Notes under the pieces: model-generated
Seen by the model: the letters and a program-made list of their open reading frames with translations, nothing else
What the model was told of the DNA's origin: nothing
Databases searched by the model: none
Shown here: piece after piece, positions 32,820 through 51,500 of the stretch
How the letters are laid out: each line of letters starts with the position of its first letter
Numbering within the stretch: the first letter of the stretch is position 1
Assembly: GCA_030390025.1 (NCBI GenBank)
Contig: JASTWF010000171.1
Coordinates: 806,001-870,000 of the forward strand
Origin: Squalus acanthias
Lineage: Eukaryota
Length of the DNA stretch: 64,000 bases
Direction of reading: 5' to 3'
Translations under genes and position numbers: made by a program

Positions 32820-33743
32820 CCAAATAAATTATCTTTCAAAATTCCCTATATTCTAGATTGGTCCCAGCGGATTTGAAGGTAGCAAATGTTACCTCGCTAT
32901 TCAAGAAAGAAGGGAGAGAGGAAACAGGGAACTGCAGGCCAGTTAGCCTGACATCAGTCATCGGGAAAATGCTGGAATCCATTATTAAGGAAGTGGTAAC
33001 AGGGCACTTAGACACTCATAATATGATTAGACAGAGTCAACATGGTTTTACATAAGAACATAAGACGTAGGAGCAGGAGTAGGTCATTTGGCCCCTCGAG
33101 CCTGCTCCGCCATTCAATAAGATCATGGCTAATCTTGGCCTCAACTCCACTTCCCTGCCCGCTCCCATAACCCTTGACTCCCTTACCATTCAAAAATCTG
33201 TCTATCTCCACCTTAAATATATTCAATGACCCAGCCTCCACAGCTCTCTGGGGAAGAGAATTCAAAAGATTCACGACCCTCAGAGAAGAAATTCCTCCTC
33301 ATTTCCATTTCAAATGGGTGCCCACTTATTCTGAAATTATGCCCCCTAATTCTAGATTCCCCCACGAGGGGAAACATTCTCTCTGCATCTACCCTGTCAA
33401 GCCTCTTCAGAATCTTATAAGTTTCAATAAGATCCCCTCTCATTCTTCTAAACTCCAATGAGTATAGGCCCAACCTGTTCAACCTTTCTTCATAAGACAA
33501 CCCTTTCATCTCCGGAATCAACCTCGTGAACATTCTCTGAACTGCCTCCAATGCAAGTAATATCCTTCCTTAAATAAGGAGACCAAAACTGTATGCAGTA
33601 CTCCAGGTGTGATCTCACCAATGCCCTGTACAGTTGTAACAGGACTTCCCTACTTGTATACTCAATTCCCTTTGCAATAAATGCCAACACTCCATTTGCC
33701 TTCCTAATTACTTGCTGTACCTGCATGGTAACTTTTTGTGATT
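32820..33743. mobile_element. Two CR1 fragments tail-to-tail (plus 32820-33050; minus 3' end 33051-33743)
   Basis: ANVT.LFKK / SQHGF; RALVRSHLEYC, RRMRGDLIE, cataagaacataaga tail. Confidence 0.85.
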
Positions 33744-34185
33744 TGATGTAAGTGGGAGCGGGCCCTGTGATATACAGGGTCGATGCTTCGTTGGGTACAG
33801 ATGACAGACTTCGAGTGATGGTTCAAAACGATCATTTAATTTTCACAGGCCCGGGGAGGGCTTGGGGAGAACCTTCTGAGACCCTTCTCAGATTCGACTC
33901 CCTGAGACCCTAGCGACATTCATACTTATACACAAAAATCATACCTTGCCCTAGGGGCGGGTGAGAAGCTATCAACGTCCCGATTAATCACATTTCTTTT
34001 ATCAGTTGGTTCTGGGACCAGATGGTTTGTTTAGTAACATGTTTTCTTAAGGTAACAGTTCCTGTTCTCGTAACGAGCTCAAGTTACTTTGAATGCACAT
34101 TTTTCCTTAACAAGCTCACAATTTTTTCCTTAACAAGCTCACGTCTAACACTTAATGATATTAATTATAAATTTTAATTACTTCA
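33744..34185 (-). mobile_element. 3' LTR (442 bp) preceded by polypurine tract AAAGGGGGAC (34186-34195)
   Basis: Termini TGAAGTAA...TTACATCA (7/8 inverted match); TATAAG at 33925-33930, ATTAAA at 33835-33840. Confidence 0.8.
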
Positions 34186-34318: not shown

Positions 34319-36193
34319 CTAAACACAGGCTGCATAGACAGTCCCCTTACGTTCTCCCCCAAGTTCATTGATGGTTAGCAACAGTTTTTCTTTCTCTTCC
34401 TCCTTTCTTACTCCTCTGGCTATTTTCTTCGCTAAGGTTTTCATTTTTCGTCCGTGACACTTGCTACAACAATCTATCAGAAGGTAAACTGATAGTGATA
34501 ATTGAACTATCACTAGCACGTGTGACATGATCCTGATCCATGGATGTACATTCACATTGAGTCCCCAGTTCCAGACCTTATTGCACCAAGGGGTTTCCGA
34601 TAAGGTTTTACTAATGTCTTTACTTTGTTGCTTTAAGTCTTTTTCTATTCTATTATAATGCTTTAAAATTTCTTTCGTTTCCCGCTGTAATTTCTTCCAA
34701 GCTTCTTGTTCCTTTAACTTAGGAATTGCCTTGGGCTCCGGTATGACATATGTTTTAATCATTCTATTAAGTCCCGTATTATTAAGTGACCAGGTTTTCT
34801 CTTTGTGTGGTCTTGGTGGGTGTATATACTCGTGTCCTATCTGTGTAGGCATCTTTGGGTAAAAACAAAAGTTTGGCTGGGGAATGGGACAAGTCAGGTC
34901 TTGGTATTCATATTTCTGTTCAGCTGTGGTGACACACAATGTCCCGTTGTTCTCTGGTGCTACCCTTGTTCGGCGTATCCCCCTTGGGTGTACCTCAAGG
35001 GTGCAATTGGTGGTTTTCGTAAATCCGCACTCGGCTGTGTCTCCCTCGGTGGGGGGGGGGGGGGGTGTGCACACCCATGTCCTTCCCTTGTGGTGGCACC
35101 CGTCCATTACCACCCCCCTTAAGGTTCCATTCTTCTGATTATCTTCATCCCTTTCCCAAATTGCCTTGGTAGGGACATCATGATATTTAACCCAACTCTC
35201 CCTTTGTACCTCTCCTATATTACCCACATCATATAGGGCCTGTCCTCCTTCAGGGAGTTGTGGGATGGCCAGTACAAAGCCAATCACCTTAGTCCATGGG
35301 GTCAGACAATTGCCTGCCCTGTGTACTTGTCCCATTTTACGCCCTTTGCATAGGCTTTTATTTGTGTCAATCCAAGGTTCCAGATCCTCATTAGTAATCC
35401 AATCAGGGATCTGTCCATTATTTATTTGCTTCATGTTATGCTGAGCATTCGACAATAGCCATGAGCCATACATGGCACATGCCAATTCCTTATGGGTTTG
35501 GTGTGATGCATTGCTGATCTGATTATTAATTGTTTTTGCATGGGGAGCTACTATCTCTTCCACCCCCAACAATTGTTTTGCCGTTTGTCCTACTGCCAGT
35601 GCCATTTGTGGGCTATTTTCAGTGGCTTGTTTTAGTAACTTCTTTATTTTTGCTTGTAGTTCTTCTACTCCTTCACTTACTCCTTCTATGTCAAAACTAT
35701 TAACTGTTGCTAACCCGGCCGCATACCCTGCTCCGGCCATTTCCAATGCTCTCCATTTCTTACGTCTCTGTAAGATAGATTTCCTTGTGGACCCTCTAAT
35801 TGTTTCATCCACAGGGAGTCCCATAATCGTTTGGTATAATCCTTACACATCGCGGGCATAGTAAAAGTACTCATATTGATAGCAAGTTTAATAATTCTAT
35901 GTGCTGCTTTAAAATACACCTCATCCTGTGTTTTCCTTATTACTAATCCCCCTCGTGCTCCCTTCTAGTACCCCCACGCCACATTTGAGATATATGGTTT
36001 TTCCCACAGTGACCGTCAGCGCTCCGCGCTCTCGATCGCAGCCCACGTCCGTCAAGCTTTTATGATATAGCCCAGTATTCGCCCTTCTGGCGATTAGTGC
36101 CGATTTCCTGGCGGTCATCTTAACCACTACCCCCTTGACAACGGCAATACTTATGTTCATCCCTAGGATCATGGCGAGAACGTTCCACCTCAT
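34319..36193 (-). pseudogene. Envelope/fusion glycoprotein gene; frameshifted N-part, open ~475-codon post-cleavage subunit
   Basis: Signal peptide MRWNVLAMILG..., basic site RRKKWR, fusion-peptide-like ALEMAGAGYAAGLATVN, heptad regions, Cys-rich block, Trp-rich pre-TM, TM IMSHVLVIVQLSLSVYLL; acceptor-like ttttgtaattacag just upstream. Confidence 0.8.
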
Positions 36194-37389
36194 TCTGGAC
36201 GTCCAATGTTCCTGTAATTACAAAAAGGGGGCTGGTCGTCACCAGCCAGTTAGAATTATTCCACTCTTATCGGTTCTATCAGTTCAAAATGCTGTACATC
36301 TGGTTCATTTCTTGGTCTGTGGCTCTGTCTCCAGACATACTTGAAGATGCAAATCACAACGTATAAGGTTAACATCACACACAGCCCTATCATTGATATA
36401 TGTATTTTAAGATTGAAAACATAGATCAAACGCTCTCACTTGGTCCAAGTTATTGACGTTTTTTAATTTATTATTTTAGAGGATCTTTTATTTTTTCAAA
36501 AGTAACCCAATATATAGTGCCCGAGTCCATTTTGTCATTTCAAAATTATCCCGAAATCCAAACAGCAGTACTGTTGAACTGACAGGTTTAGTCAATGTTC
36601 AATTTCATTTCTATCAATTTATCTTATCAATTCCAATTTCAGAAACAAGTGATTTCCAGGCTAGGTGGTTTACACAGTGTTTTAACATTAGAGACAGAAG
36701 TGCTGCAAATAGTTTACAAGGTAACTTCCATATAACAAAAGAAAGAAGAGAATCCATTGTGACTCTGCTTAAAGCCCAAGGGGTTAATCTATCAAATCAT
36801 AATTTTCCTTCTGGGAAATGTTAAATTAGAATTAAGAAACTTAAATTTAATAATGTCCAATATCTTTAAATTTCATTCAGCAATACTAAAGTTATTGCTT
36901 GATGAACTTAAACAGCTGTCAGTGGAAAGGGTTAACTCCTTTGCAGGTTTTTAAGAAGGTGGAGCGAAACATTGTCAGGCGCACGCAATTGCGTCACTTC
37001 ACGTAAATTAAAAAAAAAACTTTCCTGATCGAAAAAAGACAGTTGTGTTTTCACACTTTAACTAAACACGAACAGAACAGATAAAACAAAACAAACTAGT
37101 ACATGCCTGCAGAAAACATTAAATTACGTCATATTTCTTATTGTCCTTTCTTCAGATGCCTTTCCAAAATCCTGTAAAAACATTGAATATAACTGGAGAA
37201 AAATTAGTTTTTCACATTTAAACAAATCAAATCAAACTGCTTTGGAAGATTTCACCATAGCAACCACGACTCCAAGGTTAAATTTTAGACCGAAACTCAA
37301 TCTTTTGTTAAACAAACTTTTTGTTGTTCTTCTCAGTTTTACACACCAGCTTAACTTAAATTGTAGTTCAAGTTTTTTTTTCAATTCTT

Positions 37390-38170
37390 GGGGCACAAGC
37401 TATTGCAGCCACACATCGTGGCATTGCCTTCGCTACTGGATCCCTCTTGGTGGAGTAATACGCAACGGGTCTCTGTTTCCCTCCGTGATCTTGCATTACC
37501 ACGGCTGAATAACTCCCTTGGTCCTGGTCACAGTACAAGTGGAAGGGTCGGGTATGGTCTGGCAGTCCTAGGGCAGGGGCTGTTATTAATTCCTGTTTAA
37601 GGGCCCTATATGCTTCCTCCTGCTCTGTCTCCCCCCTTTAACTAACCGTTGAATCGGCTCTGCTTTCCCTGCAAAGTCTGATATAAAATTCCTGCAGTCG
37701 TTAAATAGTCCCATCACTTTCCTCACTCCCCAGACGGTCACTGGCCTTGGCATGTCTTTTCTGGCTGCCTTTTGTTCCTGCAGGAGTGCCTTTTACCCCT
37801 GGTTAATTTCGTGTCCTAGATACTTTACTTTGGACAGTCCAACCTGTGCCTTTTTGGGTTCAATTTAAAGCCAGCTTTCTTAAGTGTCTGGAGGGTGGCT
37901 AGTAATGCTCCCATGTGTCCTTTGGCATCCTCTGATGCAATCATTATGTCATCGACATATTAGAGTAGGGCACTCTGATACTTTGATAGGTTTAACTCGT
38001 CTAAGGCTTGACTCAGTACATGGTGGAATATATTTGGACTATTGTGGAACCCCTGCAGGACCCTGGTCCATGTATCCTGTCTATCCCTGACAGTAAAGGC
38101 GAATTTCCCTTGTGATTCCTCTGCCAATGGTATGGACCAGAACCCGTTCTGTATCCAAGACTGTACATAT
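37390..38170 (-). pseudogene. Retroviral pol fragment (RT core + tether/connection domain), disrupted
   Basis: NGFWSIPLAEESQGKFAFT...WTRVLQGFHNSP...YVDD (37948-37959)...AGFKLNP...VKYLG...GLFNDCRNFI; APALGLPD..RPFHLY...RPVAYYS...DPVA. Confidence 0.88.
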
Positions 38171-38741
38171 TTTAAAGTCTGGTTTCAGGCCATTAAATAT
38201 CTTATTCAATGCGGTCTACACAAATTTACACCAACCAGAATTTCACCGTGCACAATAAAAGTCTGGTTTTTAATAGGTTAATTAACCTCAATAACTCCAA
38301 TTCAATCCAGATTAATTGTTTTTAAACTAACCAGTATCGCTTGGAAAAGAAACCATAGCCACATTTACAAAGAAACAATTACCCATGCCCTGTAAACATT
38401 CAAATTCATTTTCTTCCAGGCACATTGGCAACTGTGACTTCAAGGCTGAAGCTTATCTTTTGTAAAACAATTAACAAACTTAAAACAACACACGCTTGTC
38501 CATCCTTCAAGACAAGTCTTCAAAGGGTTAAACAGCTTTTAGTGCTCTATACAAAAGAGTGGGTGGACCTAAAACAAAAATGACAGACACCTTTTTTTAA
38601 AGACAGACTTTCAGACAAAATAAATACTGTAACTTCTTAAACATTCACAGTCAGGTAAACTTTTAATCTTTTAACACACACTTTCACACATACTGAGATC
38701 CCAGCATTCCTTTTAAGATTCCTTTCACTCAACAAATCTTG

Positions 38742-40119
38742 GTTCCCTCATCCAAATCATTGATATATATTGTGAATAGCTGGGGCCCAAGCACTGATCC
38801 CTACGGCACCCCACTAGTCACCGCCTGCCACCCCGAAAAAGACCCATTTATTCCTACTCTGTTTCCTGTCTGTTAACCAATTTTCAATCCATGCCAGTAT
38901 ATTACCCCCAATCCCATGTGCTTTAATTTTGCACACTAACCTCTTATGTAGGACTTTATCAAAAGCCTTCTGAAAATCCAAATACACCATATCCACTGGT
39001 TCTCCCTTATCTATTCTACCAGTTACATCCTCAAAAAACTCCAGTAGGTTTGTCAAACACAATTTCCCTTTCATAAATCCATGTTGACTTTGTCTAATCC
39101 CGTTGATATTTTCTAAGTGTCCTGTCACATCCTTTATAATAGACTCTAGTATTTTCCCTACTACTGATGTTAGACTAACGGGTCTGTAGTTCCCTGTTTT
39201 CTCTCTACCTCCTTTTTTAAATAGTGGGGTTACATTTGCTACATTCCAATCCACGGGAACTGTTCCATAATCTATAGAATTTTGGAAGATGACAACCAAT
39301 GAATCCACTATTTCCATGGTTACCTCTTTTAGTACTCTGGGATGCAGATTATCAGGCCCTGGGGATTTATCGGCTTTCAGTCCCATTAATTTCTCCAGTG
39401 CTTTTTTTTATTAATACTAATTTCCTTTAATTCCTCCTTCTTACTAGACCATGGATTCCCTAGCATTTTTGGGAAGTTATTTGTTTCCTCTTCTGTGAAG
39501 ATAGAACCAAAGTATTTGTTTAATTGCTCTGCCATTTCCTTGTTCCACATTATAAATTCTCTCGTTTCTGACTGTAAGGGACCTACATTTGTCTTCACTA
39601 ATCTTTTTCTTTTTACATACTTGTAGAAGATTTTACAATCCGCTTTTATGTTCCTTGCAAGTTTACTCCCATACTCTATTTTTCCCCTCTTAATCAATCT
39701 CTTGGTCCTTTTTTGCTGAACTCTAAACTGCTCCCAATCCTCAGGCTTGCTACTTTTTCTGGCAACTTTATATGACTCCTCTTTGGATCTAATACTATCC
39801 TTAATTTATTTTGTTAGCCATGGTTGGGCCGCTTTTCCTTTTGTGTTTTTGCGCCAGAAAGGAATGTATAACTGTTTCAAATCATACATTCGTTCCTTAA
39901 ATGTTAGCCATTGCCTATCCGCCATCAAGCCTTTTAATGAAGCTTCCCCATCTATCATAGCCAACTCACTCCTCATACCTTCCTAGTTTGCTTTGTTTAG
40001 ATTTAGGACCCCAGCTTCGGATTGGACTTCTTCACTTTCCATATTAATGAAGAATTTTATCATGTCATGGTCACTCTTCCTTAAAGGACACCCGCACAAC
40101 AAGATTATTAACTAACCCT
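38742..40119 (-). mobile_element. CR1 ORF2 fragment
   Basis: KSPGPDNLHPRVLKE, NYRPVSLTS, YLDFQKAFDKV. Confidence 0.92.
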
Positions 40120-40565
40120 GAAGTGCTGGGTCTGATTTCGCCCCCTGGGCTGTTTCACTGCGGTAAAGGCGCTGCCTCGATGCAAGTTGTTGTTGGTGGT
40201 GAGCGAGGCTTCCTCCATTGTCTTTTCTCCCGCGCTCTCAGCCGCTTATGGCCGTTGATTGGACGCCCCGGTGAGGTGAGAGGTTAGCAGGCGGTGAGCG
40301 CGGGCCGGCGGTTGGTGCTCACGCCACCGCCCCCACCCGAAACCGCCTCCCTCCCTGTTCTCGCGGCGCGCCGGTGACGCAAACACGTACAGCGTCCTCG
40401 TTACGTCACACCGAGGGGCGCGAGCTGGCCCCTCACGCGTTCTTTGATTGGTTCACGGTCCGCGAGCGGCTGCCGCTCTGTTTCTGTGTCCCCGCGAGGC
40501 CGGGCCCGCCGCCATTTCCCAGGCTGCCGATTGGAGGCGCAACGCGGCGAGGAGTCCCTCGGCAT
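40120..40565. promoter_or_regulatory. CpG island / promoter-like element
   Basis: High GC and CpG density; three ATTGG boxes, CRE-like TTACGTCA and TGACGCAA, YY1-like CCGCCATTT, GC-box-like CCGCCC. Confidence 0.65.
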
Positions 40566-43500
40566 TCAGCAACCGCTCCCACGGCCCTTAGCAATATCTC
40601 CCTTGGTCCTTAGCAACCAGTCCCTCGGCCCTTAGTAATATCTCCCTTGGTCCTTAGAAACCAGTCCCTCGTCCCTTAGTAACCGGTTCCTCGGCACTTA
40701 GCAACCGCTCCCTCGGTCCTTAGCAACCAGTCCCTCGGCATTTAGCAACCGCTCCTTGGCCCTTTAGCAACAGGTCCCATGGCCCTTTGCGACTGGTCCT
40801 TGGTCCTTAGCAACCAGTCCCTCGGCCCTTAGCAACCGCTCCCTCGGCCCTTTAGCAACACCTCCCTTGGCCCTTGAGCAACCAGTCCTCGGTCCTTAGC
40901 AACCGATCCCATGGCCCTTTAGCAACCGATCCCAAGCCCTTTAGCAACCGGTCGTCGGTCCTTTGCAACAGGTCCTCGGTCCTTAGCAACCGGTCCCATG
41001 GTCCCTTTGCTCTTAGCAACCGGTCCAGGTCCCTTGGCACGTAGCAACCAATCCCATGGTCCTTTAGCAACCGGTCCCAAGGCCCTTTAGCAACCGGTCC
41101 CTTGGCCCTTAGCAACAGGTCCATCGGCCGTTTAGCAACCGCTCCCTCGGCCCTTAGCAACCGCTCCATCGGCCCTTAGCAACTGCTCCCTCGGCCCTTA
41201 GCAACAGCTCCCTTGGTCCAAAGCAACCAGTCCCTCGGTCGTTAGTAACAGGTCCCTTGGCCCTTAGCAACAGGTCCCTTGGCCCTTAGCAACCGCTCCC
41301 TCGGGCCATAGCAACCGCTCCCTCGGGCCATAGCAACCACTCCCTCGGGCCATAGCAACCGGTCCCTCGGGCCATAGCAACCGGTCCCTCGGGCCATAGC
41401 AACCGGTCCCTCGGCCCTTAGCAACCGCTCCCTCGGCCCTTAGCAACCCCTACTCGGTCCTTAGGAATCGGTCCCTCGGCCCTTAGCAACCGCTCCCTCA
41501 AGCCTTAGCAACTGCTCCCTCGGCCCTTATCAACCGATCCCATGGCCCTTTAGCAACCGGTCCCTTGGGCTTTAGCAACTGGTCCCTTGGGCCTTAGCAA
41601 ACGCTCCCTTAGTCCTTAGCAACCGCTCCCTTGGTCCTTCGCAACCGGTCCCATGGCCCTGAGCAACTGGTCCCTCGGTCCTCCACAGTTACTTCATACC
41701 AATGTGTCCCTGGAGATGGAGCACGCTGTGTCCCCGAGTACACTTGAGGCCTTCCGTGACCGGTGGGCACTGGAGGGACTCGACTTCTTCATTACCACCC
41801 GGAATTGTATTTTAAGTTGATTACATTTGATTTAAGTTCGTTTAAGTTACAGTATAGGTTGTGCCCCTTTAAGAAGGGGGCACTTGCTTCTGTTTTATTG
41901 GTGATGGCATCAGCCAATCAATGTTATCAACCAATATGAATAAGCCAATGGTTCCTCAGTCCTTAGCAACTGGTCCCTTGGCCCTTAGCAACCTGTCCCA
42001 TGGCCCTTTAGCAACCGGTCCCTTGGCCCTTAGCAACAGGTCCCATGGCCTTTTAGCAACCAGTTCCTTGGCCCTTAGCAACCGGTCCTCGGTCTTTAGC
42101 AACAGGTCCCTTGGCCCTTAGCAACCGGTCCCATGGCCCATTAGCAACCGGTCTCTTGGCTCTTAAACCGGTCGCATGGCCCTTTAGCAACCACTCACTT
42201 GGGCCTTAGCAACCGGTCCCTCGGTCCTTAGCAACCGGTCCCTTGGACCTCCACAGTTACCTCATACCCATGTGTCCCTGGAGATGGAGCACGCTGTGTC
42301 CCCAAGTACACTTGAGGCCTTCCATTACCGGTGGGCACTGGATGGACTCGACTTCTTCATTACCACCCAGAATCGTATTTTAAGTTGATTACATTTGATT
42401 TAAGTTAGTTTCTGTTACAGTATAGGTTGTGTCCCTTTAAGAAGGGGGCACTTGCTTCTGTTTATTGGTGATGGCATCAGCCAATCAATGTTATCAACCA
42501 ATAGGAATTAGCAAATGGTCCCTCAGTCTTTAGCAACCGGTTCCTCAGTCCTTAGCAAACGGTCCTCTGTCCTTAGCAACCGGTCCCTTGGCCCTTAGCA
42601 ACCTGTCCCATAGCCCTTTAGCATCCGGTCCCATGGCCCTTTATTAACCGGTCCCATGGCCCTTTAGCAACAGGTCCCTTGGCCCTTAGCAACCGGTCCC
42701 ATGGCTCTTAGGAACCGGGCCCTTAGCCCTTTAGTAACCAGTCCTCGGTCCTTAGGAACAGGTCCCTTGGCCCTTAGCAACCAGTCCCATGGCTCTTTAG
42801 CAACCGGTCATTGCTCCTTAGCAACAGGTCCCTTGGCCCTTAGCAACCAGTCCCATGCACTTAGCAACCGGTCCCTTGGCCCTTTATCAACCGGTCCTCG
42901 GTCCTTAGCAACCTGTTCCATGGCAATTTAGCAATTGGTCCCTTGACTCTGAGCAACCGGTCCTCTGTCCTTAGCAACAGATCTCTTGGCACCTTTAGCA
43001 ACCGGTCCCATGGCGCTTTAGCAACCGGTCCCTTGATTCTTAGAAACTGGTCCTCGGTCCTCAACAGTTACTTCATACCCGGGTGTCCCTGGAGATGGAG
43101 CACGCGGTGTCCCCGGGTACACTTGAGGCCTTCCATGACCGGTGGGCACCGGAGGGAATGGACTTCTTCATTACCACCCGGAATCGTATTTTAAGTTGAT
43201 TTATTACATTTGATTTAAGTTAGTTTAAGTTACAGTATAAGTTGTGCCCCTTTAAGAAGGGGGCACTTGCTTCTGTTTTATTGGTGATGGCATCAGCGAA
43301 TCAAGTTTATCAACCAATAGGAATTAGCAACCAGTCCCTTGGCCCTTAGCAACCGGTCCCTTGGCCCTTAGCAACCGGTCCCTTGGCCCTTAGCAACCGG
43401 TCCAACGGAACTTAGCAACTGGTCCCTTGGCCCTTAGCAACCGGTCCCTTGGCCCTTAGCAACCGGTCCCATGGCCCTTTAGCAACCGGTCCCTTGGCCC

Positions 43501-43847
43501 TTAGCAACCGGTCCAACGGAACTTAGCAACTGGTCCCTCGGCCATTAGCAACCGCCGGTCCCTTGGCCCTTTAGCAACCGGTCCCATGGCCCTTTAGCAA
43601 CCGGTCCCATGGCCCTTTAGCAACTGGTCCCTCGCCTCTTAGCAACTGGTCCCTCGGCACTTAGCAACCGGTCCCACGGCCGCTAGCAACTGGTCCCACG
43701 GCCGCTAGCAACTGGTCCCACGGCCGCTAGCAACCGGTCCCACGGCCGTTAGCAACCGGTCCCTTGGCCCTTAGCAACCGGTCCCTTGGCCCTTTAACAA
43801 CCGGTCCCTTGGTTTTTAGCAACATGTCCTCGGTCCTTAGCAACAGG

Positions 43848-46152
43848 TCATAGAGTTATACAGCACAGAAAGAGCCCCTACGGCCCATCGTGTCTGTGCC
43901 GGCCATCAAGCCCTATCTATTCTAATCCCATTTTCCAGCACTTGGTCCATAACCTTGTATGCTATGGCGTTTCAAGTGCTAATCTAAATGCCTCTTGAAT
44001 GTTGTGAGGGTTCCTGCCTCTACCACCCTTTCAGGTAGTGAGTTCCAGATTCCAACCACCCTCTGGGTGAAAAGGTTTTTCCTCAAATTCCCTCTAAACC
44101 TCCTGCCCCTTACCTTGAAACTATGCCTCCTGGTTATTGACCCCTCTACTAAGGGGGAAAGTTCCTTTCTATCTACCCTATCCATGCCCCTCATCATTTT
44201 GTACACCTCAATCAGGTCCCCCCTCAGCCTTCTCTGCTCTAAGGAAAACAACCCCAGCCTGTCCAGTCTCTCTTCATAGCTGAAGCGCTCCAGCCCAGGT
44301 AACATCCTGGTGAATCTCCTCTGCACCCTCTCCAATGCAATCACATCCTTCCTATAGTGTGGCGACCAGAACTGCACACAGTATTCCAGCTGTGGCCTAA
44401 CTAGTGTTTTGTACAGCTCCATCATAACCTCCCTGCTCTTATATTCTATGCCTCGGCTAATGAAGGCAAGTATCTCATATGCCTTTTTAACCACCTTATC
44501 TACCTGTCCTGCTGCCTTCAGGGATCTATGTACATGCACACCAAGGTCCCTCTGATCCTCTGTCCTTCCAAGGGTCCTACCATTCATTGTGCATTCCCTT
44601 GCCTTGTTAGTCCTCCCAAAATGCATCACCTCACACTTTTCAGGGTTAAATTCCATTTGCCACTGTTCTGCCCATCTGACCAACCCATCTTTATCGTCCT
44701 GTAGCCTGAGGCTTCCCTCCTCGTTATTTACCACTCCACCAATTTTCGTGTCGTCTGCAAACTCACTGATCATACCTCCTACATTCATATCTAAATCATT
44801 AATGTACACTACAAACAGCAAAGGACCCAGCACCGATCCCTGCGGTACACCACTGGACACAGGCTTCCAGTCACAAAAACAACCTTTGACCATCACCCTC
44901 TGCCTCCTGCCACTAAGCCAATTTTGGATCCAATGTGCCAAATTGCCCTGGATCCCATGGGCTCTTACCTTCTTGACCAGTGTCCCATGTGGGACTTTGT
45001 CAAAAGCCTTACTGAAGTCCATGTAGACTACCTCAATTCTAGGGAATGTAGCCGGGCAAGTGGCAGAAGTGTCAGTAGGAGAGCATTTTGGTAACAGTGA
45101 CCATAATTCGGTGAGATTTAAGGTAGTCATGGAAAAGAACAAAGATGGACCGGAAATAAAGGTTCTAAATTGGGGGAAGGCCGATTTTAATATGATAAGG
45201 CAGGATCTGGCCAAAGTGGACTGGGATCAGCTACTTGTAGGAAAATCCAGATCAGAGCAGTGGGAGTCTTTCAGAAAGGAAATAGAGAGAGTACAACGGC
45301 AACATGTTCCCGTAAAGGTCAAGGGTGGGACCAACAAGCCCAGGGAACACTGGATGTCAAGGGATATACAAGAATGGATTAGGAAAGAATGGGAGGCTTT
45401 TGGCAGATACAAAGGACTAAAAACAGTGGAGTATGGAAAGTGCAGGGGGGTACTTAAAAAAGAAATTAGGAGAGCAAAGAGGGGGCATGAAAAAACACCG
45501 GCGGGCAAAATAAAGGAAAATCCCAAGGTGTTTTATAAATATATTAAGGGCAAGAGGATAACCAGGGAAAGAGGATGGCCCATTAGGGACCAAAGTGGCC
45601 ATCTGTGTGTAGAGCCAGAAGATGTGGGTGAGGTTTTAAATGAATATTTTGCATCTGTGTTCACTATGGAGAAGGACGATGTCGGCATAGAAATCAGGCA
45701 GGGGGATTGTGATATACTTGAACAAATTAGTATTGAGAAGGAGGAGGTACTAGCGGTTTTAGCGGGCTTAACAGTGGATAAATCCCCAGGCCTATACGAG
45801 ATGCATCCCAGGCTGCTGTGTGAGGCAAGGGAGGAGATTGCAGGGGCTCTGACACAAAATTTCAGATCCTCTCTGGCCACAGGGGAGGTGCCAGAGGACT
45901 GGAGGACATCTAACGTAGTACCATTATTCAAGGAGGGTAATAGGGATAAACCAGGGAATTACAGTCCAGTCAGCCTAACATCAGTGGTAGGGAAATTAAT
46001 GGAAAAAGTTGTGAGGGACAGAATTAGTCTCCACTTGGAGAGGCAAAGATTAATCAAGGATAGTCAGCATGGCTTTGTCAGGGGGAGATCATGTCTAACC
46101 AATTTGATTGAATTTTTCGCGGAGGTGACGAGGTGTGTGGATGAGGGTAATG
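43848..46152. mobile_element. CR1 insertion with 5' inversion (minus 3' part 43848-45035; plus upstream part 45036-46152)
   Basis: Plus arm ends ...VDEGNA; minus arm begins EVVYMDFSKAFDKV, the next RT residues. Confidence 0.9.
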
Positions 46153-47679
46153 CCCTCATCCAAGGCCCTACCCTTCAGCAACCAGTCCTTGGTCCTTAGC
46201 AACCGGTCCCTTGGCTCTTAGCAACCGGTCCTCGGTCCTTAGCAACCGGTCCCTCGGCCCTTTAGCAACCGGGCCCTTGGCTCTTAGCAACCGATCCCAT
46301 GGCCCTTTAGCAACCGGTCCTCGGCCCTTTAGCAACCGGTCCCTCGGCCCTTTAGCAACCGGTCCCATGGCCCTTTAGCAACCGATCCCATGGGCCTTTA
46401 GCAACCGGTCCCTCGGTCCTTAGCAACCGGTCTCATGGTCCTTTTGCAACCGGTCCCTTGGCCCTTTAGCAACTGGTCCCTCGGTCCTTAGCAACCGGTC
46501 CCTCGGCCCTTTAGCAACCGGTCCCTCGGTCCTTAGCAACCGGTCCCTCAGTCCTTAGCAACCGGTCCCTCGGCCCTTTAGCAACCGGTCCCTCGGTCCT
46601 TAGCAACCGGTCCCTCAGTCCTTAGCAACCGGTCCCAATGGCCCTTTAGCAACCGGTCCCTCGGTCCTTAGCAACCGGTCCCTCGGTCCTTAGCAACCGG
46701 TCCCAATGGCCCTTTAGCAACCGGTCCCATGGCCCTTTAGCAACCGGTCCCTCGGTCCTTAGCAACCGGTCCCTCGGCCCTTTAGCAACCGGTCCCTCGG
46801 TCCTTAGCAACCGGTCCCTCAGTCCTTAGCAACTGGTCTCATGGCCCTTTAGCAACCGGTCCCTCGGCCCTTTAGCAACCGGTCCCTCGGCCCTTTAGCA
46901 ACCGGTCCCTCGGCCCTTTAGCAACTGGTCCCATGGCCCTTAGCAACTGGTCCCTCGGTCCTTTAGCAACCGGTCCCAATGGCCCTTTTGCAACCGTTCC
47001 TCGGTCCTTAGCAACCGCTCCCTTGGTCCTTAGCAACTGGTCCCTCGGTCCTTAGCAACCGGTCCCTCAGTCCTTAGCAACCGATCCCATGGCCCTTTAG
47101 CAACCGGTCCCTCGGTCCTTAGCAACCGGTCCCTCAGTCCTTAGCAACCGGTCCCATGGCCCTTTAGCAACCGGTCCCTTAGTCCTTAGCAACCGATCCC
47201 ATGGCCCTTTAGCAACCGGTCCCTTAGTCCTTAGCAACCGGTCCCATGGCCAGTTAGCAACCGGTCCCTCGGTCCTTAGCAACCGGTCCCATGGCCCTTT
47301 AGCAACCGGTCCCTCGGTCCTTAGCAACCGATCCCTCGGCCCTTTAGCAACCGGTCCCATGGCCCTTTAGCAACCGCTCCCTTGGTCCTTAGCAACTGGT
47401 CCCTCGGCCCTTTAGCAACCGGTCCCTCGTTCCTTAGCAACCGGTCCCTTGGTCCTTAGCAACCGGTCCCATGGCCCTTTAGCAACCGGTCCCTCGTTCC
47501 TTAGCAACCGGTCCCTTGGTCCTTAGCAAACGGTCCCTCCGTCCTCAACAGTTGCTTCATACCCGGGTATCCCTGGAGATGGAGCACGCTGTGTCCACTG
47601 GTACACTTGAAGCCTTCCGTGACTGGTGGGCACCGGAGGGACTGGACTTCTTCATCAATACTTCTTCAATAGAGAGTGA

Positions 47680-48596
47680 GAGTTAACTTGCAAGGAACAT
47701 AAAAGCAGACTGTAAAAGCTTCTACAAGTATGTAAAAAGAAAATGATTAGTGAAGACAAATGTAGGTCCCTTACAGTCAGAAACGGGAGAATTTATAATG
47801 GGGAACAAGGAAATGGCAGAGCAATTAAACAAATACTTCGGTTCTGTATTCACGGAAGAAGACACAAATAACTTCCCAGAAATGCAAGGGAACCAAGGGT
47901 CTAGTGAGAAGGAGGAATTAAAGGAAATTAGTATTTGTAAAAAAATAGTGCTGGAGAAATTAATGGGACTAGAAGCTGATAAATCCCCAGGGCCTGATAA
48001 TCTGCATCCCAGAGTACTAAAAGAGATAGCCATGGAAATAGTGGGTGCATTTGTTGTCATCTTCCAAAATTCTATAGATTATCGAACAGTTCCTGCAGAT
48101 TGGAGGGTGGTAAATGTAACCCCACTATTTTAAAAAGGAGGGAGAGAAAACAGGGAACTACAGCCTAACATCTGTAGGAGGGAAAATGCTAGAGTCTATT
48201 ATAAAGGATGTGATAACAGGACACTTAGAAAATATCAACGGGATTAGACAAAGTCAACATGGATTTATGAAAGGGAAATTGTGTTTGACAAACCTACTGG
48301 AGTTTTTTGAGGATGTAACTGGTAGAATCGATAAGGGAGAACCAGTGGATGTGGTGTATATGGATTTTCAGAAGGCCTTTGATAAAGTCCCATATAAGAG
48401 GTTAGTGTGCAAAATTAAAGCACATGGGATTGGGGGTAATATACTGGCATGGATTGAAAATTGGTTAACAGACAGGAAACAGAGAGTAGGAATAAATGGG
48501 TCTTTTTCGGGGTGGCAGGCGGTGACTAGTGGGGTACCGCAGGGATCAGTGCTTGGGCCCCAGCTATTCACAATATATATCAATGATTTGGATGTT
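47680..48596 (+). mobile_element. CR1 ORF2 fragment, same subfamily as 38742-40119
   Basis: KSPGPDNLHPRVLKE, GVPQGSVLGP, YINDLD. Confidence 0.92.
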
Positions 48597-51500
48597 ATGA
48601 CAGATGTTAAGCTAACTGGTCTTAGCCCTTAGCAACCGGTCCCATGGCCCTTTAGCAACCGGTCCTCAGTCCTTTAGCAACCAGTCCCTTGGCCCTTAGC
48701 AACCGTTCCTCGGTCCTTAGCAACCGGTCCCTCAGTCCTTAGCAACAGGTCCCTTGGCCCTTTAGCAACCGGTCCCTTGGCCCTTTAGCAACCGGTCCCT
48801 CGGCCCTTTAGCAACCGGTCCTCAGTCCTTTAGCAACCAGTCCCTTGGCCCTTAGCAACCGTTCCTCGGTCCTTAGCAACCGGTCCCTCAGTCCTTAGCA
48901 ACCGGTCCCATGGCCCTTTAGCAACCGGTCCTCAGTCCTTTAGCAACCAGTCCCTTGGCCCTTAGCAACCGTTCCTCGGTCCTTAGCAACCGTTCCTCGG
49001 TCCTTAGCAACCGGTCCCTCAGTCCTTAGCAACAGGTCCCTTGGCCCTTTAGCAACCGGTCCCTTGGCCCTTTAGCAACCGGTCCCTTGGCCCTTTAGCA
49101 ACCGGTCCCTCGGCCCTTCAGCAACCGGTCCCTCGGCCCTTCAGCAACCGGTCCCTCGGCCCTTAGCAACCGGTCCCTCGGCCCTTCAGCAACCGGTCCC
49201 TTGGCCCTTTAGCAACTGGTCCCTCGGCCCTTTAGCAACCGGTCCTCGGTCCTTAGAAACCGGTCTCATGTCCCTTCGCAACCGGCCCCACGGTCCTTAG
49301 CAACCGGTCCCTCGGCCCTTAGCAACTGGTCCCTCGGTCCTTAGAAACCGGTCTCATGTCCCTTCGCAACCGGCCCCTCGGTCCTTAGCAACCGGTCCCA
49401 TGGCCCTTTAACAACTGGTCCCTCAGCCCTTTAGCAACCGATCCCTTGGCTCTTAGCAACCGGTCCTCGGTCCTTAGAAACAGTTCCCTTGGCCCTTCAG
49501 CAACTGGTCCCTTGGCTCTTAGCAACCGGTGCTCGGTCCTTAGAAACAAGTCCCTTGGCCCTTAGCAACCGATCCCATGGCCCTTTAGCAACCGGTCCCT
49601 CGGTCCTTAGCAACCGGTCCCTCGGTCCTTAGCAATCGGACTCATGGCTCTTTAGCAACCGGTCTCATGGACCCTTAGCAACCGGTCTCATGGCCCTTTA
49701 GCAACCGGTCTCATGGCCCTTTAGCAACCGGTCTCATGGCCCTGTAGCATCCGGTTCTCAGTCCTTAGCAACCGGTCCCATGCTCCTTTAGCCACCGGTC
49801 CCATGGCCCTTTAGCAACCGGTTCTCAGTCCTTAGCAACAGGTCTCTTGGCCCTTTACGAACCGAACCTTGGTCCTTAGCAACCGCTCCCTTGGTCCTTA
49901 GCAACCGCTCCCTCGGTCCTCAACAGTTACTTCATACCCGGGTGTCCCTGGAGATGGAGCACGCTGTGTCCACTGGTACACTTGAGCCCTTCCGTGACCG
50001 GTGGGCACAGGAGGGACTGGGCTTCTTCATTACCACCCGGAATCGTATTTTAAGTTGATTTATTACATTTGATTTAAGTTAGTTTAAGTTACAGTATATT
50101 GGTTGTGCCCCTTTAAGAAGGGGGCAATTGCTTCTGTTTTATTGGTGATGGCATCAACCAATCAATGTTATCAGCCAATAGAAATTAGCAACCGGTCCTC
50201 GGTCCTTAGCAACAGGTCCTTTGGCCCTTCGCAACCGGTCTCATGGCCCTTTAGTAACCGGTCCTCGGTCCTTAGCAACCAGTCCCATGGCCCTTAGCAA
50301 CCGGTCCCATGGCAATTTGCAACCGGTCCCACGGTCCTTAGCAACCGGTCCCTCGGTCCTTAGCAACCGGTCTCTTGGTCCTTAGCAACCGGTCCCTCGG
50401 TCCTTAGCAACCGGTCCCTCGGCCCTTCGCAACCGGTCCCTCGGCCCTTAGCAACCGGTCCCTCGGCACTTAGCAACCGGTCCCATGGCCCTTTAACAAC
50501 CGGTCCCTCGGCTCTTTAGCAACCGGTCCCTTGACTCTTAACAACCGGTCCTCGGTCCTTAGCAACCAGTTCCTCGGTCCTTAGCAACCGGTCCCTTGGT
50601 CCTTAGCAACCGCTCCCTCGGTCCTTAGCAACTGGTCCCATGACCCTTAGTAACCAGTCCCTCGGTTCTCAACAGTTACTTCATACCCGGGTGTCCCTGG
50701 AGATGGAGTACGCTGTGTCCACTGATACACTTGAGGCCTTCCGTGACCGGTGGGCACAGGAGGGACTGGACATCTTCATTACCACACAGAATCGTATTTT
50801 AAGTTGATTTATTACATTTCATTTAAGTTAGTTTAAGTTACAGTATAGGTTGTGCCCCTTTAAGAAGGGGGCACTTGCTTCTGTTTTATTGGTGATGGCA
50901 TCAGCCAATCAATGTTATCAACCAATAGGAATTAGCAACCAGTTCCTCGGTCCTTAGCAACCGGTCCCTCGGCCTTTTAGCAACCGGTCCCTCGACCCTT
51001 TAGCAACCGGTCCCTCGGCCCTTTAGCAGCCGGTCCCTCGGCCCTTTAGCAACCGGTCCCTCGGCCCTTTAGCAACCGGTCCTCGGTCCTTAGAAACCGG
51101 TCTCATGTCCCTTCGCAACCGGCCCCACGGTCCTTAGCAACCGGTCCCTCGGCCCTTAGCAACTGGTCCCTCGGTCCTTAGCAACCGGTCCCATGGCCCT
51201 TAGCAACCGGTCCCATGGCCCTTTAACAACTGGTCCCTCGGCCCTTTAGCAACCGATCCCTTGGCTCTTAGCAACCGGTGCTCGGTCCTTAGAAACAAGT
51301 CCCTTGGCCCTTAGCAACCGATCCCATGGCCCCTTAGCAACCGGTCGCATGGCCCCTTAGCAACCGATCCCATGGCCCTTTAGCAACCATGTCCATGGCC
51401 CTTTAGCAACCGGTCCCACGGTCCTTAGCAACCGGTCCCTCGGTCCTTAGCAACCGGTCTCTTGGTCCTTAGCAACCGGTCCCTCGGTCCTTAGCAACCG

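Follow-up and report, generated by a model that had tools for sequence, protein, structure and literature searches.

A decayed env copy from a shark endogenous retrovirus family with a probable F-type envelope homologous to those of WDSV, SnRV and foamy viruses

F-like envelope proteins (Env) have already been reported for two groups of retroviruses. The available text of PMC7947760 describes them in lokiretroviruses, and that of PMC11468914 in foamy viruses, whose Env is F-like by cryo-EM. The Env of WDSV is treated as distinct from the gamma type in the available part of PMC9967133, which names no fold for it and regards it as a recent development. Transfer of the receptor-binding part (RBD) has been reported for gamma-like Env (bioRxiv 10.1101/2024.03.17.585361, available text).

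The locus described here lies in a 64-kb stretch of the Squalus acanthias genome (the window; positions 806,001 to 870,000 of contig JASTWF010000171.1), and env coordinates are given as window positions (Table 1). The window holds a decayed copy of a multicopy endogenous retrovirus, with env on the minus strand at 36193-34319. A preliminary description of this sequence had read in env a signal peptide, two frame breaks, a basic cluster, heptad regions, a Cys-rich core, a pre-TM segment and a TM, and this layout is confirmed. The ATG at 36193 opens a frame with a hydrophobic, signal-like stretch (19-mer KD 2.13 from residue 6), which is broken near 35960 and again near 35785. The basic cluster RRKKWR is followed by a Gly/Ala-rich segment (35749-35687), a long helical region, a core with nine Cys, a second heptad, a Trp-rich pre-TM segment and a TM at 34522-34457; the heptad and fusion-peptide limits are those read off the sequence and a low-confidence secondary structure. 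The chain after the basic cluster has 476 residues, in line with the ~475 described before, and a pattern search of the window env found neither CX6CC nor an ISD-like (immunosuppressive) motif, as had also been stated; gamma Env references, by contrast, do show CX6CC, and the TM subunit of that type has about 200 residues. The segment between the two breaks aligns with SnRV Env by way of the sister copy L027, and its strand and helix may correspond to F2.

The frame breaks, which had been marked for a check against raw reads, fared differently. Break 1 is genuine and was inherited, being common to the paralogues L005, L020, L071 and L073, and contigs of runs X1, X5 and X7 cross it without a gap. 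Break 2 is missing from the 99% identical sister copy (L002/L027), from L005, L020 and L071 and from contigs of all four runs compared, and is therefore private to the window copy or an assembly error.

Table 1. Features of the element and its flanks, in window positions
Position	Strand	Feature	Remarks
33743..34185	-	3' LTR, 443 nt, TG...CA ends, polypurine tract just before	Matches both ends of the C6 paralogue L071/L072
34319..35842	-	507-codon env open frame (35842-34322; stop 34321-34319): pre-cleavage end, basic cluster, fusion-peptide-like segment, heptad A, Cys-rich beta core, heptad B, Trp-rich pre-TM, TM, tail	Homologous to the Envs of WDSV, SnRV and foamy viruses
35750..35767	-	Basic residues at the position of cleavage (RRKKWR)	The window copy departs from the canonical site
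35783..35963	-	Start of the conserved core, in another frame between the two breaks	Strand and helix before cleavage
35964..36193	-	Signal peptide and truncated N-terminal head	The family has several such heads, unrelated to one another
36231..36233	-	Splice acceptor AG (36233-36232), exon from 36231	38 nt ahead of the env ATG
36406..38741	-	Degenerate internal region	AT-rich segments around RT and tether remnant
38745..40060	-	LINE fragment where the element breaks off	CR1-like, which we take it to be from its translated motifs
40117..40600	-	Host CpG-island-like region, GC 0.65, CpG o/e 1.03	Yields the upstream exon; donor GTTAGT after 40117

The LTR search of the window returned a single match, and neither a 5' LTR nor gag was found there. 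The LTR pair of the paralogous element on C6 (L071/L072) shows 10 mismatches in 421, and divergence within the LTR pair is about 2.2-2.4% in two paralogues. The pol remnant upstream of env carries stops and frame breaks, which bears out the several lesions noted earlier; it matches RVT_1 (E 1.5e-8, 37972-38163) and RT_RNaseH_2 (E 3e-12, 37419-37598). An RNase H-integrase part, 2-2.8 kb long in L029, L069 and L073, is absent from the window copy at about 36406. Paralogues carry tether, RNase H, integrase H2C2, rve and MLVIN_C, and two of them have a tRNA-Ser primer site downstream of the 5' LTR. The env search of the 3.7-Gb genome gave at least 112 matches at 34-100% identity, a lower bound since 109 were scored of 7886 candidates; a query from a second subfamily gave 100. 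The window copy belongs to a set of four near-identical segmental duplicates and owes its recent spread to segmental duplication.

Three further observations concern the surroundings of the element. Summed contig depth is far higher over the internal region than over env, and many RT copies share one 119-codon frame; the internal region is likely a high-copy non-autonomous derivative. Long satellite arrays with units of 22-23 nt and 19 nt lie in the window at 40489-50000 and from 22433 onward. A dense array of the tRNA-Ser 3'-end pattern, with about 65 matches, many of them about 1.7 kb apart, occurs at G000:C889:337887-866483.

Pol was placed by means of P0002. This paralogous frame shares 90% identity with the RT fragment of the window and groups with shark Pol proteins. 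In a 47-row RT tree P0002 joined SnRV and a minnow element (95/86) and lay outside the starred gamma/epsilon clade. P0002 again fell outside that clade in a 29-row tree that included two foamy-like rows of the genome. There the SnRV grouping was lost; P0002 was not grouped with the foamy-like rows in the free tree, and a clade with them was not rejected (p-AU 0.42). A scan of viral contigs with P0002 returned no relative. On these RT trees, which had no Loki, class II, ERV-L, ERV-S or FLERV reference rows, the element is provisionally filed as a basal, SnRV-proximal lineage outside the gamma/epsilon clade.

The AU result would also suit membership in the shark-frog foamy-like clade (CmiFLERV/XtrFLERV), in which env was never identified, with the F-like fold inherited from foamy ancestry. 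This is the likeliest of the alternatives, and we still consider it unlikely. The Env homologues come from sharks and frogs, which are the hosts of that clade, and pol alone was detected in it (PMC5512871, available text); true foamy-type Envs (PF03408, 11 matches), however, lie at other loci of the genome and are absent from the match lists of the family, and P0003, a close RT relative, is 36% identical to a foamy-like RT compared with 42% to SnRV. The loci with PF03408 matches (L200-L211, on C6, C22, C20, C17, C23 and C4) belong to a separate, true foamy-like ERV family, and a foamy-like RT was seen upstream of the PF03408 env in four of the six that were fetched.

A full HMMER search gave 37 representative matches, 35 of which fit the family profile. 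The other two, P0046 and P0066, had no match to the profile and were treated as false; the alignment A5 leaves them out, together with P0054, P0069 and P0073. Ten proteins were looked up, and the seven Env-like ones that were named belong to five sharks and two frogs. P0054 and P0069 are pieces of the shark Env family fused into predicted host proteins, an fbxo15 isoform of Heterodontus and, on our own reading, a cadherin-like protein; these fragments are possibly exonised or mis-annotated.

Reference retrovirus contigs were taken from IMG/VR, where L133 is SnRV and L119 is WDSV by match to the RT sequences in the supplement of PMC7947760. HHalign aligned A3 with WDSV Env over 451 columns (prob 94.9, E 4.6e-8) and A5 with SnRV Env over 282 columns (prob 94.4, E 8.8e-8); with the shallower A3 the match to SnRV Env reached only E 0.014. 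The control with an MLV-like Env gave prob 11, confined to the TM anchor. The top match of profile A5 in the PDB was a designed coiled coil (0.001), followed by foamy Env (8rm1_D, E 0.0021), which aligned over the beta core; profile A2 gave no match under 0.1. The A5 profile also matched shark foamy-like env frames of the genome at E 1.4e-7 and 1.8e-6, where the best of the reversed controls among 296 sequences scored 0.11. Its foamy matches cover profile 201-374 and 241-356, which is beta core and not coiled coil. A phmmer search of the PDB with the single window protein gave 0 hits, and word-index searches for homologues found nothing with either the window protein or A5. Pfam contained no significant family for the window protein or 50 aligned members; PF00523 reached only E 0.11 in one paralogue, and the PF03408 cut-off (spumaretrovirus Env) was not reached by the family. 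None of the tests for an F-type Env is decisive singly, but they are concordant. Judged by these profile comparisons, the WDSV, SnRV and foamy Envs are homologous to the shark Env family. The earlier premise that orthoretroviral TM chains are much shorter than the chain seen here is contradicted by WDSV and SnRV, which have long homologous chains.

The long C-terminal subunit of the Env has the F-type order of fusion peptide, HRA, Cys-rich beta domains, HRB and TM. The ESM Atlas places the window protein and P0038 in F0 (PF00523) clusters at 0.94, this being a single source, with a low recognition value (1733) for the window protein. AlphaFold gave two models of low quality (pLDDT 38.7 and 41.5). 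In Foldseek searches of the PDB, foamy Env and hMPV F took ranks 1-4 for the window's own low-confidence model (E 0.03-0.55), and the F proteins of NDV, hPIV3 and PIV5 took ranks 1-3 for the low-confidence model of an unbroken paralogue (E 0.009-0.04). No PDB match was at E 0.001 or below, and TM-scores were 0.1-0.3. Against BFVD a low-confidence model found WDSV Env first (E 1.2e-5); ranks 2-3, just under it, were glycoproteins of a fish filovirus (Wenling thamnaconus) and of a water strider virus. VIA-align returned generic coiled coils only. The F-like architecture of the preliminary description is supported by the foamy Env links, the Atlas F0 clusters and the Foldseek ranks, and no confident structure was obtained for it.

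Poor models, and coiled coils that dominate the VIA-align result and part of the HMM lists, are also what would be expected if the resemblance to F were convergent, with two coiled coils and a TM around an unrelated core. We think this improbable, since the foamy matches fall in the beta core, not in the coiled coils, and outscore reversed controls. Our reading is that the window env is a dead copy from a deep ERV lineage outside gamma/epsilon, and that its protein likely belongs to the F-type class I fusogens and shares descent with the foamy, SnRV and WDSV Envs; we give this reading a probability of about 0.8. In a working virus a furin-like protease would cut the Env precursor at the basic site, and the long C-terminal subunit, whose beta core would be shared with the pre-cleavage strand and helix, would refold into a trimer of hairpins, like paramyxovirus F. 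A separate N-terminal head on a Thr/Pro linker, swapped by recombination, likely bound the receptor. The window copy would yield no working fusogen, as its head is truncated, its frame break inherited and its cleavage site non-canonical.

The leader-to-core segment of 22 rows whose fusion parts are 89.7-100% identical falls into five blastn groups, namely the window type (12), the L007 type (six), the L012 type (two), L069 and L008. The L069 head shares the first 83 nt only; L008 has no upstream anchor and its grouping is uncertain. Translated heads are unrelated between groups, and close paralogues carry unrelated N-terminal heads atop fusion cores that are 90-95% identical. In the L007 and L012 types a Thr/Pro linker and a Cys-Pro motif form the end of the head, before the core, and the same linker and motif open the conserved core in the SnRV and WDSV Envs. 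The Cys-Pro motif was found in five of ten loci tested, none of them of the window type; the pattern missed L088, which shows a variant. The window head is 53-60% identical over 40-49 residues to those of a subfamily with which the window copy shares just 34-35% identity in the fusion part. Other heads are found on homologues elsewhere, and P0038 bears the name Ig-like in UniRef. We infer from these comparisons that heads were exchanged by recombination.

The N-terminal part of the window copy had been taken as natively short and F2-like. This finds no support: the window head is without the Thr/Pro linker and Cys-Pro motif, and an unbroken paralogue has about 260 residues ahead of cleavage. 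The short N-terminal part of the window type is likely a shared internal deletion, which would have caused the shared break 1. A canonical R-x-K/R-R cleavage site is present in 44 of the 56 motif rows of fetched loci, some of which overlap, so the non-canonical RRKKWR is a lesion of the window copy. As in the gamma-like Envs (bioRxiv 10.1101/2024.03.17.585361, available text), where an N-terminal SU part is exchanged without the rest of env, the head appears to move by itself; the shark family differs in swapping it on a probable F-type core, between copies 90-95% identical. Such interchangeable heads offer a natural series in which the attachment part of a retrovirus changes and the fusion machine is kept.

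Pairwise dN/dS was calculated over 487 env codons between the window copy and 17 paralogues. The values were 0.39-0.60 against seven paralogues at dS 0.11-0.20, and 0.76-1.10 against six of the seven at dS 0.04-0.07, with 0.53 against the seventh. Two of the duplicates gave 1.01 and 2.45, and the third differs by five non-synonymous and no synonymous changes. On the window copy's own branch, dN/dS was 1.15, 1.18 or 2.15, or there were 0 synonymous against six and nine non-synonymous changes. The pattern agrees with purifying selection while the virus still replicated, followed by neutral decay. Selection on env, proposed in the preliminary description, finds no support in values of about 1 or more on this branch, and the intact frame under purifying selection by which a co-opted env is recognised was not seen. 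The eight paralogues at dS 0.04-0.11 have a mean of four lesions in the same 487 codons, against 0 in the window copy, which makes the open frame uncommon (Poisson ~0.02); it is nonetheless expected about twice among 112 copies.

A contig of run X4, the RNA status of which is a guess, carries a 125-nt loose end where it departs from the window, at 36232. The 30 letters shown of this end match 40118-40147 exactly, and the spliced join, GT-AG on the minus strand, links 40117-40242 to 36231; it is seen in one contig of one run, with four duplicates as possible sources. An acceptor had been expected near 36210. The only splice found uses the AG given in Table 1, and no joint or loose end near 36210 is listed in the four runs with full tables. 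The ATG of the host exon is out of frame with env. The splice into the env leader suggests read-through from a host promoter, not function.

We see very little room for the idea that the host has kept or co-opted env and expresses it from the upstream CpG island. The 1.5-kb open frame, the one spliced contig that links host exon to env leader and the coverage of env by contigs of runs guessed to be RNA would agree with it, but dN/dS is not under 1 on the window copy's branch, in every window-type copy looked at break 1 cuts off the signal peptide from the fusion chain, the frame from the host exon ATG closes over the env ATG after 47 codons, and the splice comes from a single contig and run of guessed RNA status among four near-identical duplicates. 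The CpG-island exon itself is present in four 99% copies, each beside an ERV duplicate, and in five further copies at about 80%. No host gene was found downstream of the CpG island, and the window contains no C2H2 motifs. About 27 kb past the left end of the window, on the other strand, L192 (C812:778.7-779.2 kb) has five scattered C2H2 motifs in three frames and is likely a decayed zinc-finger gene.

There is equally little to commend the view that the element is a lokiretrovirus, which would extend Loki to cartilaginous fish and make the F-like Env its known hallmark: Loki Env is described with the same layout and has a PF00523 match, and the dual RNase H is shared (PMC7947760, available text), but the RT motif in the supplement of that paper is PFGY(S/A)NSPAEFN as against PQGFHNSP in the shark family and PQGFHASP in SnRV, compared by eye, and the supplement lists three chondrichthyan genomes, 0 with Loki. 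Paralogues do combine tether, RNase H and F-like Env as Loki does, and these characters are not diagnostic because other retroviruses share them.

The comparisons made here tie the WDSV and SnRV Envs, so far unclassified, and a large shark-frog ERV family to the F-like type. This suggests that the F-type envelope is far more widespread among retroviruses than reported. The available parts of PMC7947760, PMC6001957, PMC11468914, PMC5512871, PMC9967133, PMC12583693, PMC11521997, PMC13524379, PMC9040795, PMC13709493, PMC8922424 and bioRxiv 10.1101/2024.03.17.585361 state neither that SnRV or WDSV Env is F-like nor that such a shark env family exists, and no report of an F-like Env in sharks, SnRV or epsilonretroviruses was found in the literature searched, from which subscription papers were mostly outside. 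Tentatively, and at slightly less than even odds, the F type may be the ancestral retroviral Env (Loki, foamy viruses, SnRV, fish epsilonretroviruses and the shark-frog family), the short-TM gamma and beta Envs having taken its place later, and its core may be a chassis for swapped heads (Cys-rich, Ig-like and others), even among recent copies. With the WDSV, SnRV and shark-frog Envs tied to one type, the origin of retroviral Env, for which Wang and Han left four scenarios open, becomes testable. The interest lies in the family and not in the window copy, the locus itself being a neutral fossil.

SnRV (class III, clade Huo of Xu et al. 2018, PMC6001957, available text) is the closest named virus by RT identity (38-42%). 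It has a YVDD RT like the shark family, and the homologous stretch of its Env begins at the Cys-Pro motif and takes in the beta core. The differences are that some 500 residues precede the core in SnRV Env, that the RT grouping with SnRV is unstable, and that the shark window copy is endogenous and broken. The Env of WDSV (Epsilonretrovirus) shares 451 aligned columns and the same order of cleavage site, heptads, Cys core and TM, and is the top named BFVD match; its head and tail are much longer, and the WDSV RT lies inside the gamma/epsilon clade whereas the shark family lies outside. Lokiretrovirus Env (PMC7947760, available text) has an F-like layout in a vertebrate retroelement with tether and RNase H; its RT motifs are unlike, it occurs in 0 of 3 chondrichthyan genomes, and the Envs are likened by description only.

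Foamy Env (PDB 8rm0/8rm1) has a homologous beta core in the C-terminal subunit and a long post-cleavage chain, and its solved fold is F-like (PMC11468914, available text). The shark Env differs in having no PF03408 match, a variable head N-terminal to the core, and a short signal peptide where foamy Env has a long leader peptide. The F proteins of paramyxo- and pneumoviruses (PF00523) resemble the shark Env in predicted architecture, reach the top Foldseek ranks and turn up in the Atlas clusters. In these viruses attachment is the task of a separate protein; the shark Env, which has no significant sequence match to F, bears an N-terminal head of its own.
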